A stretch of DNA of 64,000 bases from the NCBI GenBank assembly GCA_963823655.1, contig CAWGMK010000006.1, positions 160,001-224,000 on the forward strand. The letters run 5' to 3'. Origin of the DNA: an uncultured Bacillota bacterium (GTDB taxonomy: Bacteria; Bacillota; DTU025; MWDF01). Positions 17,190-30,881 of the stretch are shown piece by piece (within the stretch, counting starts at the first letter, position 1; each line of letters starts with the position of its first letter). A program made the position numbers and the translations under genes. A model generated the notes under the pieces. The model was not told where the DNA came from. It was given only the letters and a program-made list of their open reading frames with translations, and searched no databases.

Positions 17190-18439
17190 AAAGGCGGACA
17201 CTGCCAAGGTCGAGTATTGCGCAAAGATACGCCTTGTTGTTGCCATACGCAAGCTCAGTGACATCACAAAGCCATTTCTCATTGCTCCTCTGGTTTTGAA
17301 CCTCCTGTCCTAGATGTTCTCGGCCAAGACTTGCGGAGTGAGAGTAAGCGTAGATCTTGCGTTTGATACGGATCACGGCCTTGATGCCAACATACGCGCA
17401 TCAACCTTCTGATGCGTTTGGGATTGTATCGCTTTGCTCCTTTGCGGTTGAGTAGCCATCGTGATACGACGGTATCCGTAGATGCCGTTAACGGAGTGAT
17501 AGATTGCTAAAATGCTGGGGATAAGCTTCTCGTTCTCTAGCTCAAGCCTGCTGGGCTTGCGCTTGGCCCAATGATAGTAGCCGGAGCGAGATATGTTCAA
17601 CAGCTGGCACAGACATGATTACAGGATATCCCTTTTGGGTGATTGAGCTCCTTTATCGCTTTGTATTGTCCTTCAAGCCGGACAGCGCTGAGCCATACCC
17701 CCTTTCTATTTCGCGGACTTTTTTTAGCAGGTCATTCTCCATCTGTAAGCGGTAATTCTTGGCTTCAAGTATCTTGTTCTCGGCCTTGAGCTTCTCAAGC
17801 TCTGTCATGTCCTCAATTGCCTTGCCTTTGCCTCTCGTATCCTTAAGCCCGGCCAAGCCTCTTGCTTCGTACTTCCTTACCCAGCTGTAGATCTGGGCGT
17901 AGGATACTTTGAATTCCTTGGCCGTAAGTATGTAGTTATGGTCGTTCTCAAGGCAAAAGGCTACAATCCCGACCCTTTCCTCCAAGGTCGTCTTTCTTCC
18001 TTCGGTCATGTGGACGCTACCTCCCGGACATACTTTGCGTGCGCCTCTATGACCATTATTGTATTCTATGACCCATCTTGAAACTATTGATCTTTCGAAG
18101 CAATGCTGTACTTTATTGCAAGGTCGGCTGAAGAGCCTTCACCTGCCAGGTACTCCCTTAACTACCTTGTCCTTGAATTCTCTTGTGTACCTCTGATGAG
18201 TTATCCTCCTTAAGATAGAAAACCTCACCTTTGGCATAGTAACACTGCATAAGCGCTCGTAAAGTACTACAATTTATACCATGAGTCTCTCGAAATGCTT
18301 TCTCCTAGATTCCCCTTCTAAACATCTATTGATGATATCCAATCTTGCTTCGTTAGATAGCTTTCCGAGCTTTGACATAAGAATACTCCCCCCTGGACAG
18401 TTTGTTTATTTCACTGTCCACTTCGGGGGGAGCATATCA
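17190..18439 (-). mobile_element. Degenerate, 3'-truncated IS3-family element
   Basis: Left end TGATATGCTCCCCCCGAAGTGGACAG at 18439; orfA HTH fragments (KVSYAQIYSWVRKYE...ENDLLKKV), A7G slippage site at 17718-17725, orfB fragments (SRSGYYHW, YGYRRIT, NEKWLCDVTE...YLCAILDL); no right end found. Confidence 0.9.
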
Positions 18440-18453
18440 TGAAGTGCCGCCCA

Positions 18454-20345
18454 TTAAGAATCTATTCGCTGTTTTAATTTCTCGGAAGCTTGACTGTGCC
18501 ACCTCCAGGAGGAAGGAACTGGCCGCCTCCGGCTTTTCCGCCCGGGCCTCCCCTGGCTGATGACACCTGTTTCCGATATGGCGCTTACCATGCCGGCGAT
18601 CGATACATCGACGATTTTATTACTGCCTGCATAAAGCGTATATGAAGACCCAATGGCCAAATCCTTGGTTGAAATAACTACAGATGAGTAGCTTTTCGAG
18701 GGTGTAAAGCTTGCGATCTGCTTGCCTGTGGAGTCCTTTAAGTAAAGAGTAGTGCCGGCCGACTGGGAAGTGCCATAGTACATCAATATCGATGGTTGAG
18801 TAGAGCCTGAGCTGGGCGCCTGTGCCATTCCGGAACTTCCCGAAGCGATTAATATCCCGCCGCTTATCATAAACTTCCCGTTGTAGTCCACGCTGCCGTT
18901 CATATTTGCCGTTGGCCCATCAACATATACCACGCCGCCCGTCATTTCAATGTTTCCATTAGAGTCAAGGCCATCCCCGTCTGCCACTATGGAAACGCTC
19001 CCTTTGCTTATTGCCAGCAGGCCGCTATTCTGGTTGACGTTGATCCCATCATCCGATGAGACAATGCTGACTTCTCCTCCATTGATGTTTATATGGGCTG
19101 CCTCAAGGCCCTCATAGGAGTTTTCGATGTCTATTTGTCCGGCATTTATCGTAATGCTATTGTCGGCATGCATGGCATCATCACCGCTTTGAATGCTCAA
19201 ATCGCCTCCGTTAATAATGATCTCGTCATTGCTATGTATTGCATCGTCATATGAAGATAGCTTAAAGACACCTCCTGCGATGATCACTTTTCCGGTAGAT
19301 TTAATGCCCTTCTTGCTCTCTTCAACCGCCTGAGCGTTGGACTGCGCTGTACCGAATGCCTGGCCGGCAACCCTGCCGAAGCCTTCGTTTCCGCTGCTGA
19401 TGCTCCTTCCGGGGTAGCCGCCCCCTGTTGCGATGTCGAACTTGCCATCTTCTATGCTGAGCACGTTGTACGCCTGTATGCCGTCATTGGCCGCTTTTAT
19501 CGTGAAAGCGCCATTATGTATTGTTACATTCCCCTTTCCTTCTTCCGTATCATTGGTAGCGCGAATTCCATCCTTGCCGGCGGTAATTGTTAACGTGCCA
19601 TCCATGATTTCTACTTTGTCCTTGCCTACTATTGCATCCGAGGCCGCGTCGATTGTAATATTGCCCCCGGTTATCATTAAATCGTCTCTGCTCGTTATAC
19701 CGTCATTGTAAGAGGTCTTCACCATCAGGGATCCGCCTCCGCCGATAGTCAGGTCCGCTTTGCTGAAGATTGCCGCAGTGGGTTCTTCATCTTCGTTTAT
19801 TTTCACCCTGCTGCCCTGTGTAATGCTGTTTTCGGAGGCGTCGGCAAGCACGAGCATGACTTCTTTGGCCTCAGATATGTATATTGGGGAGCTGGTTTCG
19901 CTATTAATCTGAACTCCGTTTAATACGACTTTGACGAGACCCTTATCAACCGATTTATCCACATTAATAAGAATGCTGCCATCTGTAAGGGCGCCAGTAA
20001 TCTCGTATTCGCCGGAAGCTGCAATCGTTATGATTGAACCCCTTATAGTTACTCCGGGTCCGTTTGAGCTTGCTGTATCCCCGCTCAGCTTGATTGCTAC
20101 GCTACCTATGCCATGTGAGCTGATTGCATCTGCTCCTGATCCGTTGCTTTCGACATTACCGAGATCTGCGGTAGTATCAATGTCAGCTGTAGAGGTTTCG
20201 TTTCTACGAAAATCTGGCCATCGGCCATACCTGTGGCAGATGTACAGCCGGTTAGCAGGCTCGCGCCTAATAGTGCTATCATTGCGACTGTGACTGGTCT
20301 GTTCTTTTGCATCCGTTCAAAAGCTAAAAATCCGAAAATATCCAT
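18454..20345 (-). CDS. Cthe_2159/DUF4353 carbohydrate-binding beta-helix lipoprotein (frameshift at ~20210 and probably near the C-terminus)
   Basis: Lipobox LTGC in ORF 20106-20345; repeated DGI/DAIH/SYEGLEA/DGLDSNG coils, AAIFSKADLTIGGGG, GSSGMAQAPS. Confidence 0.85.
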
Positions 20346-20453: not shown

Positions 20454-20746
20454 ACTCGGTTATTTTGCTCTAGCTGACAACTGACATGGCATCTGACAAT
20501 AGCGGTACATTTTATTGCAAATACTCAATAAGAAGTCCTGTCAAGCTGGGTGGTTGTGCCAAGCCAAAGGCAAATCTTGCTGGCTCTTACTGTCGAAAAA
20601 GAAGGAATTGCGAGAAGGGTGTATAATTACCTATATACAGGGAAATCCAGTTAACGAGCTTGCCGTGTATTCAGACGGGTGCAGTGTTGTGATTGCCCCA
20701 AAATTGGGATAAGCTTGCTATTAAGAAAAGAAGGAGGGGATATTTG

Positions 20747-21601
20747 ATGAAAAGAAACTCCATAGTCCTTGCAGGAATCGCGATAATGCTAATGTTTGCG
20801 AGCATTGGAGTTGCTTCCTCCGGAATGACACTAGTGCACAACCTGGGTGAAACACTTCCCGACATCAACCTGACTGACGGTCAGACTTTGACGATAAAAT
20901 TCATCGCCGACCCAGGTTCCGTAATAACTTATGGTGCATTGCCGGAGGGCGCAACTTTCGACCAGGCGACTCATACTTTTACTTGGACCGCCGAAATTGA
21001 GCAAAAAGGAATATACCCACTCAGTTTCTCCGGGTTCTTAGGCAGTCTGGCAGTAACGTCCACAGTATCGGTCGAGATTTTGGACTGCCGGGTACAGGTA
21101 GTCGCAACCGGGCTTGATTATATCTGGTCGCCAAATAATAAGCTTGTTGAAGTGGAAATAATTCTTTTGGATTCTGCCGGGAACCGGGCCGATATCGAGA
21201 TCCTTAGCGTAGAGGTTGTAGACACTCTCAGGAAGAGCCTGGCAGAGGAAAAGGAATCAAACGGCAAGGGAAAGGGCCTTCTTAAAGAGGTCCATGTGCC
21301 AAGCGCGCTTTTGAACGGAAAGAAGGACGGGGAATTCCAGGACGTTGAAGGATCGTATTTCCTCAGGGCGACAAGGCTTGGCCTTATTGAGGAGAGGACG
21401 TATGTAATCTCTTTCAGGGCGACTTATCCTCTAACCGGCGTGGTTGAGGAAGCCACGATCAGCATCTCGATACCTCACGATATGTCAGAGATCAAACCTG
21501 ATGTAGAAGAGGAAGATGAAGAAACCGAGGAAGAGATCGAAGAAGAGGAAGAGACTGAAGGCGAAGAAGAGGGACCGAAAAAGGAAAAGAAAGAAAAGTA
21601 G
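20747..21601 (+). CDS. Secreted Ig-domain protein with acidic/basic tail
   Basis: Signal peptide; He_PIG-like LPEGATFD....FTWT; second domain IWSPNNKLV...LRATR...RTYVISF...ISIPHD; poly-Glu then KKEKKEK. Confidence 0.75.
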   Translation: MKRNSIVLAGIAIMLMFASIGVASSGMTLVHNLGETLPDINLTDGQTLTIKFIADPGSVITYGALPEGATFDQATHTFTWTAEIEQKGIYPLSFSGFLGSLAVTSTVSVEILDCRVQVVATGLDYIWSPNNKLVEVEIILLDSAGNRADIEILSVEVVDTLRKSLAEEKESNGKGKGLLKEVHVPSALLNGKKDGEFQDVEGSYFLRATRLGLIEERTYVISFRATYPLTGVVEEATISISIPHDMSEIKPDVEEEDEETEEEIEEEEETEGEEEGPKKEKKEK

Positions 21602-21623: not shown

Positions 21624-21660
21624 CCCCTTTGGGTATCATGCCCAAAGGGGTTTTTTATTT
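21624..21660 (+). terminator. Intrinsic terminator
   Basis: CCCCTTTGGG/CCCAAAGGGG stem plus T6. Confidence 0.85.
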
Positions 21661-22013: not shown

Positions 22014-23096
22014 ATGAAAATATGGCGTACTCCATTGGTTTCGCTTCTTCTAATCTTCGCAATGTCCGCATCGGCCTTTTGCTCGAATGGCATGAAGCCA
22101 GAAGACTCGTTAACTTTGCCCTGGATTATCTTTGAGGCCTTGAATTTGCCCTTTAGCCAACCGCCGGTGGGCAATGCGGGCAAGCAACAAGATATACGCG
22201 TTCTCATTATCGAGGATTTTGAAGGGAGGTTGCTTACAGAAGCGACTTGGGATGGCTCTGCGCCTCGTGTGTCAGCGGGTGGCAAGGAGTGGGCTTTTAA
22301 ACTTTCCGCGCTGTTAGAAGGACGTCAAGTCGAGTATGAGCTTTGCATCAGTATCGAGGACAAGGCGAAATTACCTGGAGGTTCCGCCGTCCTTACCTTA
22401 AAAGACCTGAGCGGACTTGAGCTTGGCTCAAGCTTTACGCATGTTTTGAATTTGCATGGATTTGAAGGTCTTGCTTCGGATGACGGCAGGTCGGCGGCGC
22501 TCTCGCCAAATGGGGCTCAATCAAACGGGCTTTCCCAATTCATTGCAATGGTTGCTCGGATGGGAACGTGCCTTTTCCGGTTTGAGCAGGCCGGAGGGAT
22601 GGATGAGGAGCCGAGCATTATCATCGCCGAATCCGAAAACAAAGTCGGAAAAGGGCGTGATGGCACGGCCTTGATGGAAATCCTCTTCGCTTCGGCACAA
22701 TCCTGGGCTCCGGGACATGTATTAGATTTTGCAAACGCCATTGATGGGGGAGAAAGAAAGCCTGACATAAGGGTCCTGGGAGTCTCGGACAAGGCGGCAG
22801 TTAACCCAGGAGAGGCCATTGGGTATACTTACTTCCTTTTCAACGCCGGAACAGGAAGCGCGGTTGATGTTGAGTTCACTATCCCGATCTCGGCTGAAGT
22901 CCAGCTGATTCCTGCATCCCTTAGCTGCAGCAAGGGAGAGCTGAAGCTTATCCAGCAGGAGTACGGTATCCCGGGGTCGGGAAGCATTGAAGAGGCGAAA
23001 GGTGCCGGCTATGAGGAGAGGACCATTAGGCTGCTGCTTACCGAAGAAATCATCCCGGGCGAAGCGATATATATCGAATTTGAAGTCTCAGTATGA
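22014..23096 (+). CDS. Secreted protein with C-terminal incomplete DUF11 domain
   Basis: Signal peptide; DKAAVNPGEAIGYTYFLFNAGTGSAVDV...IIPGEAIYIEFEVSV*. Confidence 0.75.
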   Translation: MKIWRTPLVSLLLIFAMSASAFCSNGMKPEDSLTLPWIIFEALNLPFSQPPVGNAGKQQDIRVLIIEDFEGRLLTEATWDGSAPRVSAGGKEWAFKLSALLEGRQVEYELCISIEDKAKLPGGSAVLTLKDLSGLELGSSFTHVLNLHGFEGLASDDGRSAALSPNGAQSNGLSQFIAMVARMGTCLFRFEQAGGMDEEPSIIIAESENKVGKGRDGTALMEILFASAQSWAPGHVLDFANAIDGGERKPDIRVLGVSDKAAVNPGEAIGYTYFLFNAGTGSAVDVEFTIPISAEVQLIPASLSCSKGELKLIQQEYGIPGSGSIEEAKGAGYEERTIRLLLTEEIIPGEAIYIEFEVSV

Positions 23097-23111
23097 TAGG
23101 AGGTTATCATT

Positions 23112-24854
23112 TTGTATAAGAAGCTTATTAGGACCTATTTGCTCGCTTTGATAATTGTCGGCATAGCAGCCGCGGCCGCCAACGCATCGGGGACATTAGC
23201 AGGTACAATGATAAGAAACAGCGCTACAGTAAGCTACAAGGACGCGAATAGCAACCCGATGACGTCCGTAACATCCAATGAAGTGATTACCGAGGTGGAC
23301 AGTGTGTTCGGCGTCGATATTTCGCCGAACGGATACCCTGTTGCCGGATTCAGCGAGAGCAAGACAAGGGATTTCGTGTTTACCGTAACAAATACTGGAA
23401 ATGACCTGGACATGTTTGCCCTTGCTGTTACAGGAATCCCCGCCGGTTGGGGCGCTGTCATATACCACGATGCCGATGGCGATGGCATCTTGGATGCCGG
23501 CGAGCCGACTACTAGCAATACAGGCTCCCTTGATCCTAACCCTCCCACATTGCCTGCCTCTACCAATTACGAATACTTCATAATAGTACGGGTCACGGCT
23601 CCCGCGGCGCCTGTGGTAGTAAACAATATTGCGACTTTTACGCTTACTGCAATATCGGCGGGGTCGGCTTCCGTTACTGATACAGCAAGCTTCAGCATGG
23701 AAGTAGAACAGGCGGAAATCGCAGTATCAAAGACGGCGGAACTTGCAAACCCGATGCCCCTGGAGCCTTTCGACTATACGATTTCTGTTACCAATTCGGG
23801 GACTGTTCAGGCATATGATGTAGTAGTGAGCGACGTTCTCCCAAGCGGTATTTCATTTAGAGGTCCGGTGCTGTACGACGCCGATGGGGCGGGGGCACTG
23901 TTCTCACCAGTCATTTTAGCTGGTGCTTACTCCATGGGCACGGTAACAGTGAACATCGGCAGCCTTGGAGCTGGGATTACGGCTACGATTTCGTTTGAAG
24001 CTGAAGTGACCGCCGAAATTCCTGCCGGGACCGGCATTCTTAACTCTGCCGGCGTAACGTATGACGACTGGAATGATTATCATTTCATCTCAGCAAATTC
24101 CAGCACCGTGACAGTAAAAATCCGCGGCGGCGTCAATATTGAAAGCAGCCGCAATGCATATGTCGATCCGGGGGACGTGCTGCAAATCCCATTCACCATT
24201 GAGAACACCGGCAACGGAACCGATGACATGATAATTTCCGCAACGCACAATGATTGTAATCTCAGCCTTACTTGGACTATCCTTTGGGACTCTGATGAGG
24301 ACGGCACATATGAAACTACAGTGGGTACCACCTCAGGTTCGGATAACATGGTAGGGAATACCGGACCCATCGCAAAAGATGATGTTTACAGTTATGTCGC
24401 AACGGCCAGTATTCCGGTGGGAACCGCCGACACCCTGTTCAACAAGGTTGTCATTTGGGCCAGCAGCACAAAGGGCCCTATACCTTTTATGTCAGACGGC
24501 ATAACTTTGATAAATACTGTGAAGTCGCCTACGCTAACGCTAGTCAAGCAGGTTGATAAGCAGAACTCTGTTCCTGGCGAGATCCTAACTTATACGTTGA
24601 CTGTCACGAATACCGGGACTGGAGATGCCTTAACGGTCCTTATACAAGATAGTATCGACCTGATGAAGGATTCTATAGACTTTATAGCAAGTTCGATAAG
24701 GGTTGATAACGTGCCTCAGACCGATGCCCTGGATTCCGATTATGCGGATTTCGCTGCCAATGTGGTAACAGTCAGAATTCCTCAGATCGGCGGGACTCTC
24801 ACACTACCGCTGAAGACCTCATACGTGATAACTTTCCAGGTAAGGGTAAAATAG
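23112..24854 (+). CDS. Secreted DUF11-repeat protein (circularly permuted, two-fold internal repeat)
   Basis: RBS GGAGG with TTG start, signal peptide ending ANA; two DUF11 domains (VSKT...YTISVTNSG...VVSDVLP; LVKQ...YTLTVTNTG...IQDSI) alternating with two Ig-like domains carrying DxDxDG loops. Confidence 0.85.
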   Translation: MYKKLIRTYLLALIIVGIAAAAANASGTLAGTMIRNSATVSYKDANSNPMTSVTSNEVITEVDSVFGVDISPNGYPVAGFSESKTRDFVFTVTNTGNDLDMFALAVTGIPAGWGAVIYHDADGDGILDAGEPTTSNTGSLDPNPPTLPASTNYEYFIIVRVTAPAAPVVVNNIATFTLTAISAGSASVTDTASFSMEVEQAEIAVSKTAELANPMPLEPFDYTISVTNSGTVQAYDVVVSDVLPSGISFRGPVLYDADGAGALFSPVILAGAYSMGTVTVNIGSLGAGITATISFEAEVTAEIPAGTGILNSAGVTYDDWNDYHFISANSSTVTVKIRGGVNIESSRNAYVDPGDVLQIPFTIENTGNGTDDMIISATHNDCNLSLTWTILWDSDEDGTYETTVGTTSGSDNMVGNTGPIAKDDVYSYVATASIPVGTADTLFNKVVIWASSTKGPIPFMSDGITLINTVKSPTLTLVKQVDKQNSVPGEILTYTLTVTNTGTGDALTVLIQDSIDLMKDSIDFIASSIRVDNVPQTDALDSDYADFAANVVTVRIPQIGGTLTLPLKTSYVITFQVRVK

Positions 24855-24991: not shown

Positions 24992-25874
24992 CTAGATCGA
25001 AGATAAGCAGCCCTTTAGATATTCGATACCCTTACGGGCATACATGTCCTGCTCTGCCTTACAGATCGCCGTTTCTCTTGTACAGCCCTCTTCGCACGGA
25101 GTATATTCCATGGTTAGAGCTCCCTCATATCCGATGCTACGAAGTGCGCGAAGTATCGATATCAGGCTCATTTTTGTTAGGGATGGGCACTTCCTGTCGG
25201 CATCTGCTATATGGAAACATGCCAGGCGCCCTGCAGAGCGCACGATCGCTGCTTCGATATCTTCACATTCCCTCAGCATATGAAAAGTATCAAGGTTTGC
25301 CATGACGCGCGGCGAGCCTACTTCATCAAGGAATTGCAGAAGGGCATCGGTATTATTGATGCTATCTGAATCGAAACGGCATATAGCCTCAATAGCCAGT
25401 GTGCTGCCGATTTCCTCTGCGAATCGGGCAAGCCTGCTTACCAATTCCGTCAGTCTCTTGTATGAGTCGCCACGTGTGGCGTGCCCCCTCTTTGCCGAGG
25501 CTTCCGCGCGCAATGCCAATGATGACCACAGCCCCATATTTGCAGCTGTCTTGCATCACTGAGCTTATTGCAGCTTCCGCCCGCGAAACAATCTCCTTGT
25601 TGGCATGAGAAAGCGAAAGGCCGTCCCTGGCATAGATATTGCCTGTGGCAACCGCTGCAAGCTTGATTCCCGCAGGATCGAGAATTCTGCCTATGCCCTT
25701 CAACGAAATGTCCGACTTCCCGGAGAGGTGAAGGTCAATGCATGAATAGCCGATATCAGCTGCTCTACGCACGGATTCGGAAAGGGGGCCTCGAAAAAGA
25801 ATAGGAGAGGATGTGGCTGGATTCTCGGCAACCGAGGCTGAAATCGGAGGATCCCATTTATTTGGCTTGTTCAT
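24992..25874 (-). CDS. Sugar phosphate isomerase/epimerase (xylose isomerase-like TIM barrel), frameshifted at ~25470
   Basis: Two overlapping ORFs: GYSCIDLH...ATG...DGLSL...VIIG..RG, then LAIEAICRF, LDTFHM, FHIADADR, GYEGALTME. Confidence 0.8.
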
Positions 25875-28214: not shown

Positions 28215-28397
28215 TGATATCACCTCCAAAGATACAATTTCGACAGTAGTGGATAATATCCTACAAAATATGAATAATTGGCACGGCGAAACAACATTTC
28301 CTTGGCTTCTAGCCCTTATTGCTGCTCACGGGTTGGAGGTGAATGGCCGGTAGTATTAGAATGTATATATGAAACAATAGGAGAAGGGGAGGCCGCC

Positions 28398-30881
28398 ATG
28401 ACACATCCTGATCCAAAGAACTTCTTTATAGGCAGGGCCTATGACCTCAAACAGGGCAAGATTAAAGATGGAGAAGATAAAGAAGACATAATGTTAAACC
28501 CGTCCGATCTGACGACACATGCAGTCGTAACGGGGATGACAGGCTCCGGTAAAACCGGACTTTGTATAGGGCTTTTGGAGGAAGCGGCATTAAAGGGCCT
28601 TCCTGCGATTATCATAGATCCAAAAGGGGATCTGACAAATCTCATCCTTCATTTTCCAGAGCTTGCTCCCGCCGATTTCGAGCCATGGATCGATGAGGAC
28701 TCTGCAAGGCTGAAGGGCAAGTCCAAGCGGGAAGCAGCTCAGGAGGCTGCGACCAGCTGGGGTACTAGTATTGACCAATGGGAGCTTGACAGGGCAACGC
28801 TTACTATGCTTAAGAAATTCAGTTTTGCGATCTATTCTCCCGGATCGGCCGCAGGTATTCCTGTCAATATTCTCTCCTCTTTCGAAGCACCTGCCATACC
28901 GTGGGAGGGCAATGAGGAGTCCCTTAGGGAACGGATATCCAGCACGATCACCGCAGTGCTCGGCCTCGTAGGGATGAACGACATCGACCCTCTCAGGTCA
29001 AGAGAGCATATACTCCTCTGCAACATCCTTGAGAGCTCCTGGAGCGCAGGCAGGGGGCTGACTTTGACCGATCTGATTATGCAGGTCCAGAAGCCTCCGA
29101 TGGACAGGCTCGGCGCCTTCCCGATGGACAAGTTCTTCCCCGAGAAGGACCGCTTCGAGCTTGCCATGCTGCTGAACAACTTCCTGGCGTCGCCCTCGTT
29201 CCAGGTCTGGCAGCAGGGCCAGCCGCTAGACATAGAAAAGCTCCTTTATACTGTCGACGGCAAGCCAAGGCACAGCATATTCTATCTTTCACATTTGAGC
29301 GAGAACGAGAGGATGTTCTTTGTGACACTCCTCTTCTCGGCAATTAAATCCTGGATGCGCAAGCAAAGGGGCACCAGCGGGCTTCGCGCTCTTGTCTACT
29401 TCGACGAGATCCTCGGTTACCTGCCGCCTGTGGCGAACCCCCCTTCAAGGGGAGTAATGCTAAGGATGATCAAACAGGCAAGGGCGTTTGGCGTAGGGCT
29501 ATTGCTGGCCACGCAGAACCCAGTCGACCTGGACTACAAGGCGCTGTCCAACATCGGCACATGGTTCATCGGCAGGCTTCAGACCGAAAGGGACAAGATG
29601 CGGCTCATGGACGGATTGGAAACCCTGACGGGAGGAATGGATGCTTCCGCAATCAGCGATATAATCTCCAGCCTGGGCAAAAGGGTGTTCCTTATGAACA
29701 ATGTGAACAGGCCCGGCCCGAAGGTGTTCCACGCCAGGCAGGTTCTAAACTACTTGGCCGGGCCGCTGTCGAGGGACCTGCTGCCCGAATTGAACAGGCT
29801 TGCCGGCGCCTCACAGGCAATAATTTCCGGGCCCGCCAATAAAGCCAAGGAAGACGAGAAGGAGTCGGTCGGTTCAGCAGAGGGCTTTGCCAAAATGAGG
29901 CCTGCGGTACCGTCCAAAATCGACGAGTTCTTCCTGCCTGCCCAGCTTGCGATAACCAGGGCGATTTCCGCCTCAGGCGCTAATATCCCGGTGCCGGAAG
30001 TGTACTCGACATGCTATAAGCCCTCATTCATAGCCCAAGCGGAGATCAGGTATACAGCTTCGAAATTCGGCGTGAATAAAGCCCAGCTAATGACCGGGAT
30101 CTTGGAAGAGGGCGGCACAAACAGGCCGGATTGGGAGGAGAGCCTTGCCCAGGGCATGGACTCAAGGGGTTTCGACAGGGGGCCTGAGCCCGATGCTCTG
30201 TTTGCACCGCTTCCGGGCTGGCTTTCGGATCCCAAGTCCATCAAAGAGAACGCCGACGATTTTTCGGACTGGCTTTACAGAAACTCAAGAATATCGATAT
30301 TGGCCAACGAGAACCTGAAGCTGTACGCCGCCATCGATGAGGGGGAGGACAGCTTCCTTGAGAGGTGCCGTCAGCAGGCGAAGGAAATGATGGAAGGCGA
30401 GCTGGACAAGCTGGAGGACTCTTATAAGAAGAAGATGGACGCCCTTGAGGACAAAGTGCGCAAGCAGGAGGGCGAAGTCGAGCTAAGGGAACAGAAGGTA
30501 AGCCAGCACACAATGGATGCGATAGGCACCGCCGGCTCTACTATCATCGGCATGCTCATGGGCAGGAAGAGAAGCCTCGGCTCGTCCATAACCAAGACGA
30601 GGATGACCTCAGAGGCGAAAAGCATGCTCTCCCGCGAGAAGAAGGAACTTGAAGACATGAAAGACGAGCTTGAGGACTTGGAGAAGGAATTTGGCGACAA
30701 GCAAGAAGAGCTTGCCGCGGATTTCGAGAAGCTCGCCCGGGATATTACTAAAGTGCCATACTCGCCGAAGAAGTCGGACATATTCCTATCCTTCTACGGC
30801 GTGGCATGGCTTCCTTACTACATCTTCAAGGACGGCAACTATACCAGGCAGGTAAGGGCATTCTCCTTGAAGGAGCAATAG
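28398..30881 (+). CDS. HerA/FtsK-superfamily ATPase (DUF87/DUF853-like) with C-terminal coiled coil
   Basis: LTTHAVVTGMTGSGKT (Walker A), IIDPKGD, YFDEILG (Walker B), KQARAFGVGLLLATQNPVDLDYK, IGRLQT. Confidence 0.88.
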   Translation: MTHPDPKNFFIGRAYDLKQGKIKDGEDKEDIMLNPSDLTTHAVVTGMTGSGKTGLCIGLLEEAALKGLPAIIIDPKGDLTNLILHFPELAPADFEPWIDEDSARLKGKSKREAAQEAATSWGTSIDQWELDRATLTMLKKFSFAIYSPGSAAGIPVNILSSFEAPAIPWEGNEESLRERISSTITAVLGLVGMNDIDPLRSREHILLCNILESSWSAGRGLTLTDLIMQVQKPPMDRLGAFPMDKFFPEKDRFELAMLLNNFLASPSFQVWQQGQPLDIEKLLYTVDGKPRHSIFYLSHLSENERMFFVTLLFSAIKSWMRKQRGTSGLRALVYFDEILGYLPPVANPPSRGVMLRMIKQARAFGVGLLLATQNPVDLDYKALSNIGTWFIGRLQTERDKMRLMDGLETLTGGMDASAISDIISSLGKRVFLMNNVNRPGPKVFHARQVLNYLAGPLSRDLLPELNRLAGASQAIISGPANKAKEDEKESVGSAEGFAKMRPAVPSKIDEFFLPAQLAITRAISASGANIPVPEVYSTCYKPSFIAQAEIRYTASKFGVNKAQLMTGILEEGGTNRPDWEESLAQGMDSRGFDRGPEPDALFAPLPGWLSDPKSIKENADDFSDWLYRNSRISILANENLKLYAAIDEGEDSFLERCRQQAKEMMEGELDKLEDSYKKKMDALEDKVRKQEGEVELREQKVSQHTMDAIGTAGSTIIGMLMGRKRSLGSSITKTRMTSEAKSMLSREKKELEDMKDELEDLEKEFGDKQEELAADFEKLARDITKVPYSPKKSDIFLSFYGVAWLPYYIFKDGNYTRQVRAFSLKEQ

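Follow-up and report, generated by a model that had tools for sequence, protein, structure and literature searches.

A DUF11 protein with complementary half-domains at its two ends as a candidate major subunit of a self-joining surface fibre

Why should a protein with a signal peptide begin with the last two strands of a domain and end with another copy of that domain from which exactly those two strands are missing? The question is raised by a gene for a 580-residue protein in a 64,000-nucleotide stretch of DNA from an uncultured Bacillota bacterium (positions 160,001 to 224,000 of contig CAWGMK010000006.1; this whole stretch is referred to as the window). The protein alternates immunoglobulin-like (Ig) domains with domains of the DUF11 family, the last of which is truncated (Table 1). 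We conclude that this is most likely the gene for the main subunit of a surface fibre in which the N-terminal hairpin of one subunit would enter the unfinished domain of its neighbour. An earlier note, made from the sequence alone, had proposed a covalent head-to-tail fibre, and we hold this stronger claim with moderate confidence. It draws support from predicted docking, conservation, the proven isopeptide-forming fold of DUF11 domains and homologues consisting of a single unit, while the bond, the length and polarity of the polymer and the export route are what we infer from these lines of evidence.

The chain is a tandem duplication of a unit of about 273 residues, as the earlier note had described. 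Local alignment of residues 26–300 with residues 301–580 scores 185, against a mean of 42.75 (standard deviation 6.98, maximum 74) over 300 shuffles. The Pfam DUF11 model (PF01345) reaches 63.2 bits (cut-off 24.6), and the internal domain can be taken as complete because the best stretch, residues 203–335, spans positions 2–114 of a model of 114. TIGR01451 (77.6 bits) and the NCBIfam model TIGR04226 for a K-to-N isopeptide-forming domain (46.2 bits, cut-off 30) also match the protein. From an alignment of 25 homologues we built two hidden Markov models (HMMs), one of the hairpin (columns 27–62) and one of the last domain (columns 470–580). The hairpin HMM matches residues 27–62 (65.2 bits) and again residues 304–334 (16.3 bits), so that N36 and N311 coincide in the model. 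The last-domain HMM matches residues 470–580 (111.2 bits) and 213–299 (27.7 bits), and here D513 coincides with D241. Since the internal match ends at residue 299, the C-terminal domain stops where the internal copy runs on into its hairpin. Both HMMs thus agree with the previous reading, in which the mature N-terminus corresponds to the last two DUF11 strands and the C-terminal DUF11 domain lacks precisely those strands; the latter ends one residue short of where the missing strands would begin.

The residues expected to form an isopeptide bond follow the same pattern. In the internal domain K207 lies on the first strand and N311 on the penultimate one, 24 residues from the domain end. The distance from Lys to Asp is 34 residues in both copies (K207 to D241 and K479 to D513), as had been noted, and equivalent residues are 275 (N36/N311) or 272 (K207/K479 and D241/D513) positions apart. 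The C-terminal K479 and D513, together with the N-terminal N36, can therefore be read as split copies of K207, D241 and N311. The two DxDxDG loops are likewise present (D120-x-D122-x-D124-G125 and D393-x-D395-x-D397-G398), and among the 25 aligned homologues N94, G96, N97, D100 and G125 of Ig-like domain 1 and D393 and G398 of Ig-like domain 2 are invariant.

The DUF11 family has been renamed CLIPPER, and its crystal structure 9IFR holds an autocatalytic Lys–Asn bond in a K715/D748/N806 triad with Asp as the catalytic residue (PMC12617251). The same source states that in CnaA-like folds the isopeptide bond links the first and penultimate strands (PMC12617251), which matches the positions of K479 and N36. 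An AlphaFold2 (AF2) monomer model of the 580-residue protein has a mean predicted local distance difference test (pLDDT) score of 75.9 and a predicted template modelling (pTM) score of 0.43. In this model the internal domain (residues 198–336) superposes on 9IFR with a Z-score of 12.2 and a root-mean-square deviation of 2.8 Å over 119 of 123 residues, a comparison that covers the internal domain only. The BcpA pilin (3KPT) gives a Z-score of 13.9, and EbpB, PilA/PilB, SpaD and RrgB superpose as well; all single-domain fold matches aligned to the internal domain (198–337). Foldseek with the whole 580-residue model returned generic tandem-Ig matches only (template modelling (TM) scores 0.14–0.28). 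A phmmer search of PDB sequences with the whole protein and with residues 200–338 found nothing below E 0.04; the best match was again BcpA (3KPT, E 0.041), and 9IFR was not reached.

Complex prediction places the hairpin in the unfinished domain. We paired a fragment comprising residues 336–580 with one comprising residues 27–200, using a 25-row alignment for each, in three runs and three controls. The interface score ipSAE (interaction prediction score from aligned errors) was 0.86 in all three runs, compared with 0.02, 0.34 and 0.00 in the controls; in the calibration of the tool, 58 of 80 solved complexes attain this mark, as do 2 of 110 mismatched pairs. Between runs at least 99% of contacts are shared, and the partner has a pLDDT of at least 85. 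The predicted interface comprises residues 27–28, 32, 34–48, 50, 53–65 and 97 on one side and residues 471–522, 552, 559 and 579–580, with a few residues of Ig-like domain 2, on the other. Residues 38–43 run along 506–513 and residues 55–58 along 475–481, with D513 contacting residues 38–39 and K479 contacting residues 55, 56 and 58. This arrangement supports an interface in which the hairpin completes the truncated DUF11 domain of another chain. The earlier proposal of insertion in trans is borne out to the extent that the fragments are predicted to dock with N36, K479 and D513 all inside the interface.

Taken together, these features suggest how a fibre could be assembled. Following export through the Sec pathway and removal of the signal peptide, the mature protein would begin with the hairpin (residues 26–62). 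The hairpin of one subunit would enter the unfinished domain (residues 471–580) of the subunit ahead, its first strand settling against residues 506–513 and its second against residues 475–481. N36 would thereby be brought beside K479 and D513, and an autocatalytic Lys–Asn isopeptide bond could form, like that of a complete CLIPPER domain. In the internal domain with K207, D241 and N311 this joint would be present in genetically fused form. The chains of related organisms probably start at a tip protein with an unfinished domain only and probably end at a giant protein with a hairpin only, whose large outer-membrane barrel would act as the anchor and may pass the fibre through the membrane.

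The split ends are shared by a family of proteins. A word-indexed search scored 8000 candidates, of which 173 had E ≤ 1e-3, and an exhaustive search yielded 5077 representatives at E ≤ 1e-3, 1470 at 1e-10 and 178 at 1e-30. The strong matches fall mostly into two groups, very long DUF11 repeat adhesins and proteins that belong to one of three narrow length classes. Proteins were scored for an N-terminal hairpin match combined with a last-domain match ending no more than five residues from the C-terminus. Both ends are found in 58 of the 61 two-unit proteins (500–640 residues, duplicate P0001 excluded), with P0075, P0106 and P0116 below the thresholds; the hairpin match of these homologues begins at residues 10–55, mostly 24–35. 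In the three-unit class (820–960 residues) the count is 56 of 82, and the 26 failures mostly reflect divergent ends or borderline scores. Single-unit homologues, which had been suggested as a search target, also exist: all four proteins of 327–338 residues have the donor Asn and the acceptor Asp. At least 118 cluster representatives of the one-, two- and three-unit forms share the split ends. Of the long DUF11 proteins (106 with more than 1100 residues), two (P0173 and P0224) have the hairpin at the start, and by the thresholds used none has a truncated core at the end, although P0265 ends in a similar strand by eye; split ends thus mark a particular family and are not general among DUF11 repeats. 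Judged by source names, members occur in Firmicutes, Marinimicrobia, Armatimonadetes, Proteobacteria, Thermus and others. In a same-phylum sample only 2 of 301 genomes match at E ≤ 1e-20, one of them the source genome (G000), so the family is patchy in that phylum; this sample added no gene context to that of the same-genus genome described below.

Gene context provides the strongest argument for joining in trans. Metagenome contigs were searched with a nine-sequence alignment, and a conserved order of four genes emerged from the related loci. In a genome of the same genus (G125) the first gene encodes a 611-residue tip protein with an N-terminal part of no known type, a complete DUF11 domain and, at its very end, a truncated DUF11 domain, and it has no hairpin. 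The second encodes a 365-residue homologue of the protein encoded just 5' of the major gene in the window (the minor protein; E 3e-18), the third a 575-residue homologue of the major subunit, and the fourth a giant of at least 1906 residues with the hairpin motif directly after the signal peptide. The order tip, minor, major, giant is complete in seven loci (L010, L013, L014, L015, L017, L019 and L020) and partial at contig ends in five (L011, L012, L016, L018 and L021). A small DUF11-like protein is encoded directly 5' of the major gene in L010–L017 and L019–L021, and a hairpin-first protein directly downstream of it in all ten two-unit loci that extend past the major gene, the window being the exception.

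The partners of the major subunit carry complementary halves. No hairpin match was found in any of eight tips, and all eight have the truncated C-terminal core; each of six giants has exactly one hairpin match, at its N-terminus. Tips (acceptor only) and giants (hairpin only) cannot complete themselves in cis, and trans joining is therefore favoured. From these sequences, a chain running from the tip through n major subunits to the giant, each donating its hairpin to the one before, would balance every half-domain. The subunit put forward in the earlier note as a candidate for polymerising on its own should accordingly be seen in a wider setting: its own donor does fit its own acceptor in prediction, but in related loci it is one of four clustered genes, beside partners that have just an acceptor or just a donor.

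A working split joint is also what conservation points to. Measured as the mean majority fraction, it is highest of all segments in the donor hairpin (0.73), followed by the acceptor (0.54), the Ig domains (0.51 and 0.48), the internal core (0.46) and the internal hairpin (0.45). In the 58 two-unit homologues the terminal Asn is kept in 55, the terminal Lys in 52 and the terminal Asp in 56, and the terminal triad is complete in 51, whereas the internal Lys and Asp are kept in only 35 and 40, respectively. The split triad is thus better preserved than its fused internal counterpart. P0010, P0014, P0016 and P0020 are among the proteins that have the terminal set without the internal K, D and N. 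In P0025 and P0035 the terminal triad, with its Asn about 420–425 residues from its Lys in sequence, is lost jointly. In the three-unit class the donor Asn and the acceptor Asp are each present in 56 of 56 proteins. The partners agree with this pattern: Lys is found in nine of nine tip acceptors, with Asp in seven and Glu in two of the nine, and Asn in 10 of 12 giant donors, with Ser in L013 and L014.

Several observations weigh against a covalent joint formed in trans. The pair 479–36 is not among the least-error residue pairs listed for the predicted complex. The fragments as cut gave the hairpin no option in cis, and the prediction may amount to no more than two halves of a well-known fold being put together again; the tool itself cautions that a high score can stem from structures memorised in training. 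In the monomer model the hairpin has a pLDDT near 80 and shows partial strand pairing, compatible with docking in cis. The residue aligned with K479 is Glu in P0005 and P0006, both of which keep the Asn and Asp, and Gln in P0238. All homologues are kin, and the conservation counts given above do not represent independent events; P0025 and P0035 in particular are close relatives, and their joint loss of the triad may be a single event. We found no published experiments on this protein or on any homologue.

The state of the system in the source organism also counts against the proposal. The window (contig C6 of the genome) holds the minor and major genes only, with no tip or giant gene. A second cluster on contig C10 (C10:117874–129222, equivalent to L037 7874–19222) comprises a tip, a 373-residue minor protein, a major subunit with 35–58% identity to that of the window, and a hairpin-first giant with a barrel domain. 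Here the tip, major and giant genes are broken over several frames with in-frame stops, which could reflect either pseudogenes or assembly errors. The window copy may thus be the working major subunit of an otherwise damaged system; alternatively, this organism may have no functioning system at all. Such possible incompleteness lowers confidence for the organism but not for the family. As a separate observation, the region 5' of this cluster (about C10:92000–109900, L041) holds Arg/Ala/Gly-rich ORFs (open reading frames) of the kind found in high-GC DNA, running into a DUF7507 repeat protein; a search for an intact N-terminus of the second barrel-bearing giant on this contig led into that unrelated high-GC sequence. 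Contig C10 thus seems to be a chimera with its junction at about C10:109,900, in a bin whose stated contamination is 3.77%. A word search of sequencing runs listed no RNA run, and three DNA runs, all from one study, share half or more of the words.

A fibre with the same donor-hairpin joints could be held together without covalent bonds, K, D and N being kept by DUF11 inheritance or as stabilisers of the domain core. Chaperone–usher, type V and TasA fibres are all stable without covalent bonds. Work on BsaA, a Clostridium perfringens fibre protein, reports that N35A oligomers are still resistant to sodium dodecyl sulfate (SDS) when unheated (bioRxiv 10.1101/2024.11.04.621531), and the bond is absent from some DUF11 domains, as stated in the CLIPPER study (PMC12617251). 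The missing aligned Lys of P0005, P0006 and P0238 would also fit. Mere inheritance, however, would predict the opposite of what is seen, namely a split triad complete in 51 of 58 homologues beside an internal Lys and Asp that decay, and it does not sit well with the Lys of all nine tip acceptors and the Asn of 10 of 12 giant donors. We therefore consider a non-covalent fibre unlikely.

The length of the structure bears on a further alternative, a stalk of fixed length in which one tip, one major subunit acting as spacer and one anchor are joined through the same hairpin joints. The ends encoded by the operon are exactly complementary, the tip offering only an acceptor and the giant only a donor, and length seems to be set genetically through the one-, two- and three-unit forms, for which there would be less need under free polymerisation. 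Yet the donor of the major subunit is predicted to fit the major subunit's own acceptor (0.86), the donors of majors and giants match one HMM and the acceptors of tips and majors another, and we saw no feature that would block joining of one major subunit to the next. Such a stalk seems improbable to us.

Folding of the hairpin into the C-terminal domain of its own chain would give a closed monomer, a circular permutation with no role in assembly. The structured hairpin of the monomer model (pLDDT about 80, some strand pairing) is in line with this, and four domains provide chain enough for ring closure. It would not explain the eight tips without a hairpin or the six giants that have a hairpin and no unfinished C-terminal domain; moreover, the same ends occur in one-, two- and three-unit forms, which no single ring geometry can suit, and the hairpin is far better conserved than its fused internal copy. 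For these reasons we regard completion in cis as very unlikely. Least credible of all is an accident of repeat phase, in which an ordinary DUF11 stalk adhesin would carry non-functional half-domains at its ends: DUF11 proteins are commonly tandem repeats (5077 matches at E ≤ 1e-3, many of them thousands of residues long), but only 2 of 106 long ones are hairpin-first and 0 of 106 end in a truncated core, the split ends recur in at least 118 cluster representatives, and the supposed leftover hairpin is the best conserved part of the protein.

If the joints are indeed made in trans, the giant would be the base of the fibre, and its C-terminal region is of interest in this regard. The last approximately 750 residues of the giants are 67%, 59% and 45% identical among L012, L037 and L010. 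The same domain recurs at full length, with about 25% identity, in proteins of about 1634 residues encoded after three-unit majors (L023, L025, L028 and L032), and a 188-residue part of it matches in L035. It matches no Pfam or NCBIfam family and ends in ...KF. The fold in an AF2 model based on 11 sequences (pLDDT 65.3) is all-beta; from around residue 230 onwards, about 30 long strands follow one another through hairpin connections. All of its Foldseek matches are large outer-membrane barrels (SlpA of Deinococcus, LptD, FimD, PapC, SprA and MtrB), with E-values of 1e-6 to 1e-4 and TM-scores of only 0.19–0.26. In the source genome, which is 97% complete, Omp85/BamA is encoded at C10:441658–442536 (137 bits) and LpxC was not found, which fits a diderm lacking classical lipopolysaccharide. 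We infer that an outer membrane is present and serves to anchor the giant; a role of the barrel as a pore for the fibre is speculation, by analogy with ushers. The earlier note had seen no usher in the window, which is correct, and no match to the Pfam usher family (PF00577) was found in the 97%-complete genome; the statement does not extend to the related loci with their outer-membrane-barrel-like partner.

Two variants of this arrangement were observed. In L022, L023, L025, L028, L032 and L035, whose majors have three units (about 870–913 residues), a small DUF11-like protein and the major are followed by the protein of about 1634 residues, which has the barrel domain and no hairpin, and L023, L025, L032 and L035 contain an additional ORF of 349–2439 residues ending in a truncated DUF11 core. 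Next to the cluster on C10 (L037 2721–7445) lies a gene for a 1574-residue protein with five DUF7507 repeats and the same barrel-like C-terminal domain of about 750 residues (59% identity), so that anchoring by this barrel family extends to ordinary repeat adhesins.

The minor protein has a signal-peptide-like N-terminus, a first part of about 245 residues that matches no family, and a DUF11-like domain that keeps the truncated phase and extends to its last residue, and it has no donor hairpin. The similarity of this domain is partial: Pfam DUF11 aligns over positions 1–54 of 114 at residues 251–304 (E 0.24), TIGR01451 gives 26 bits, and residues 248–286 align with residues 471–509 of the major protein (E 4e-4). 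In this alignment G256 occupies the position of K479, and there is no Asp at the position of D513. Its homologue in the same-genus genome (E 3e-18) is encoded at the corresponding place in the gene row. In the ESM Atlas the best score was 0.85, below the level at which the tool treats a match as more than a lead. The minor protein could be a second, non-covalent distal cap, an adaptor, or a holder that guards against premature reaction of the hairpin. The minor gene ends 15 nucleotides before the major ORF, and terminator-like hairpins at 21624 and 21838 set the pair apart from the preceding gene. An IS3-like transposase fragment, recognised by eye about 4 kb upstream of the pair, may mark a rearrangement.

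Table 1. Features of the major gene, its product and the surrounding genes (window coordinates)
Feature	Position	Strand	Remarks
118-residue ORF	17653–18009	-	by eye resembles the first ORF of an IS3-type transposase; adjoins surface-protein genes
Cthe_2159 carbohydrate-binding beta-helix protein	18454–19962	-	secreted-looking; E 2e-80
He_PIG Ig-domain protein	20693–21601	+	secreted-looking; 302 residues; long Glu/Lys-rich tail; two terminator-like hairpins after the gene
Minor protein gene	22014–23096	+	360 residues; co-oriented, 5' of the major ORF; AAGGAGG ahead of ATG
Shine-Dalgarno-like AGGAGG	23098–23103	+	8 nucleotides 5' of the TTG start; sequence read
Major subunit gene	23112–24854	+	580 residues, TTG start; signal peptide, donor hairpin, Ig1, complete DUF11, Ig2, truncated DUF11
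Signal peptide	23112–23186	+	residues 1–25, end A-N-A; sequence read; model helix 2–20
Donor hairpin	23187–23297	+	residues 26–62; homologous to the last two strands (304–335) of the internal DUF11
N36	codon 23217–23219	+	proposed isopeptide Asn, in the donor hairpin
Ig-like domain 1	23298–23711	+	residues 63–200; DxDxDG loop D120–G125; all-beta in the model
Complete internal DUF11/CLIPPER domain	23712–24116	+	residues 201–335, with K207, D241 and N311; Pfam, TIGR04226, fold match
Ig-like domain 2	24117–24521	+	residues 336–470; DxDxDG loop D393–G398; aligns with Ig1
Acceptor (truncated DUF11)	24522–24851	+	residues 471–580, without the last two strands; stop codon directly after
K479	codon 24546–24548	+	acceptor domain
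D513	codon 24648–24650	+	acceptor domain
Xylose-isomerase-like TIM-barrel gene	24992–25874	-	two overlapping ORFs, frameshift-like; AP_endonuc_2 E 3e-20 (3' piece)
867-residue protein	28278–30881	+	HerA/DUF87/TrwB-type P-loop N-terminus; long charged, coiled-coil-like C-terminal part

On a broader scale, the family might constitute an undescribed, widespread class of outer-membrane-anchored "split-CLIPPER" pili, a suggestion that we put forward tentatively. Their subunits would be self-ligating pairs of tag and catcher, assembled with neither a sortase nor a classical chaperone–usher pair, in a four-gene system whose giant would be both terminator and anchor and would contribute a barrel of about 30 strands for passage of the fibre. 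If true, this would add a further route to covalent surface fibres, autocatalytic through a split isopeptide Ig domain, in bacteria with an outer membrane, and would extend CLIPPER/DUF11 from an intramolecular to an intermolecular staple. It would also assign a function to many proteins of about 330, 550 and 880 residues annotated as "DUF11 domain-containing" or "beta strand repeat-containing" in many phyla, and would point to a new family of large outer-membrane barrels tied to fibre assembly. Finally, it would provide a natural hairpin and catcher pair for protein ligation and for self-assembling materials resistant to heat and protease.

Among characterised systems, the closest in domain type is the CLIPPER domain of 9IFR, which belongs to the same Pfam family and shares the CnaA-like fold and the Lys/Asp/Asn triad (PMC12617251). 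Its Lys-to-Asp spacing is 33 residues, compared with 34 here, and the Asn lies about 22–24 residues before the domain end. The bond of 9IFR is formed within a single domain of a single chain, part of a fibrillar adhesin stalk, whereas here a split domain would join two chains; the CLIPPER survey considered intramolecular bonds in monomer models only (PMC12617251).

In its covalent lock the proposed joint resembles that of BsaA, a member of the TasA family, for which a "donor-strand exchange and lock" has been proposed with an N35–K74 bond assisted by E56, mutants losing their oligomers (bioRxiv 10.1101/2024.11.04.621531). Both would involve export through Sec, insertion of an N-terminal segment into the sheet of the neighbour and an autocatalytic Asn–Lys lock with an acidic helper, with no need of a sortase. 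In both, the Asn sits on the N-terminal donor and the Lys and acidic residue on the acceptor (N36 against K479 and D513 here), an analogy of function only. BsaA has a TasA/camelysin-like fold, and no such family is among the nine Pfam matches of the present protein at E ≤ 1; it also differs in its single-strand donor, its monoderm host, its SipW operon and the lack of an outer-membrane barrel partner. The thread subunit Saci_0406 of Sulfolobus acidocaldarius similarly combines head-to-tail donor-strand complementation with a proposed spontaneous isopeptide bond between subunits (PMC9715654). It is archaeal and has no Pfam domain, and its bond runs from the N-terminal amine of Asp24 to Asn57 of subunit n+2, unlike a Lys–Asn bond between direct neighbours (PMC9715654). 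A literature search, with subscription journals and supplements outside its reach, turned up no publication in which DUF11/CLIPPER is linked to donor-strand assembly or to an intermolecular bond. Two candidate precedents were set aside: the "DUF11" matches of the "tafi" paper are DUF1102, and in the F-ENA paper DUF11 occurs only as spacer domains of an anchor.

The assembly logic itself is that of chaperone–usher pili (Fim/Pap), which likewise pair an incomplete Ig fold with an N-terminal donor extension, and the ushers FimD and PapC appear in the list of structures matched by the C-terminal domain of the giant. The differences are a two-strand donor in place of one strand, a probable covalent lock and a barrel fused to the donor-bearing giant, in a genome in which no PF00577 usher was found; nor was a PapD-like chaperone identified, although no search aimed at one was made. 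Sortase pili (BcpA, RrgB, SpaD) are covalent fibres of Ig-like isopeptide domains and provide the best fold matches of the internal domain, which shares its fold and bond chemistry with these pilins and with CLIPPER. There an enzyme joins a C-terminal Thr to the Lys of a pilin motif; here, as the earlier note had stated, there is no LPXTG motif (the protein ends in the strand ...FQVRVK) and no sortase in the window, the sole Pfam sortase match of the genome (28.9 bits) lying on contig C10. Type V pilins are lipoproteins with a lipobox Cys and an N-terminal strand removed by a protease, whereas the signal peptide here ends in A-N-A and is followed by S-G-T, without a Cys. SpyTag/SpyCatcher and DogTag/DogCatcher are engineered split isopeptide domains, in which a tag with Asn or Asp ligates spontaneously to the Lys-bearing remainder, and DogTag is a hairpin. 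These are laboratory constructs made from adhesin domains of Gram-positive bacteria, whereas the present protein would be a natural split that serves polymerisation. By analogy, the system would resemble chaperone–usher pili with a covalent lock of the BsaA or thread type while belonging to neither group, and its new features would be a CnaA-type isopeptide domain split between the two chain ends, a two-strand donor, and a partner in which donor and barrel are fused.

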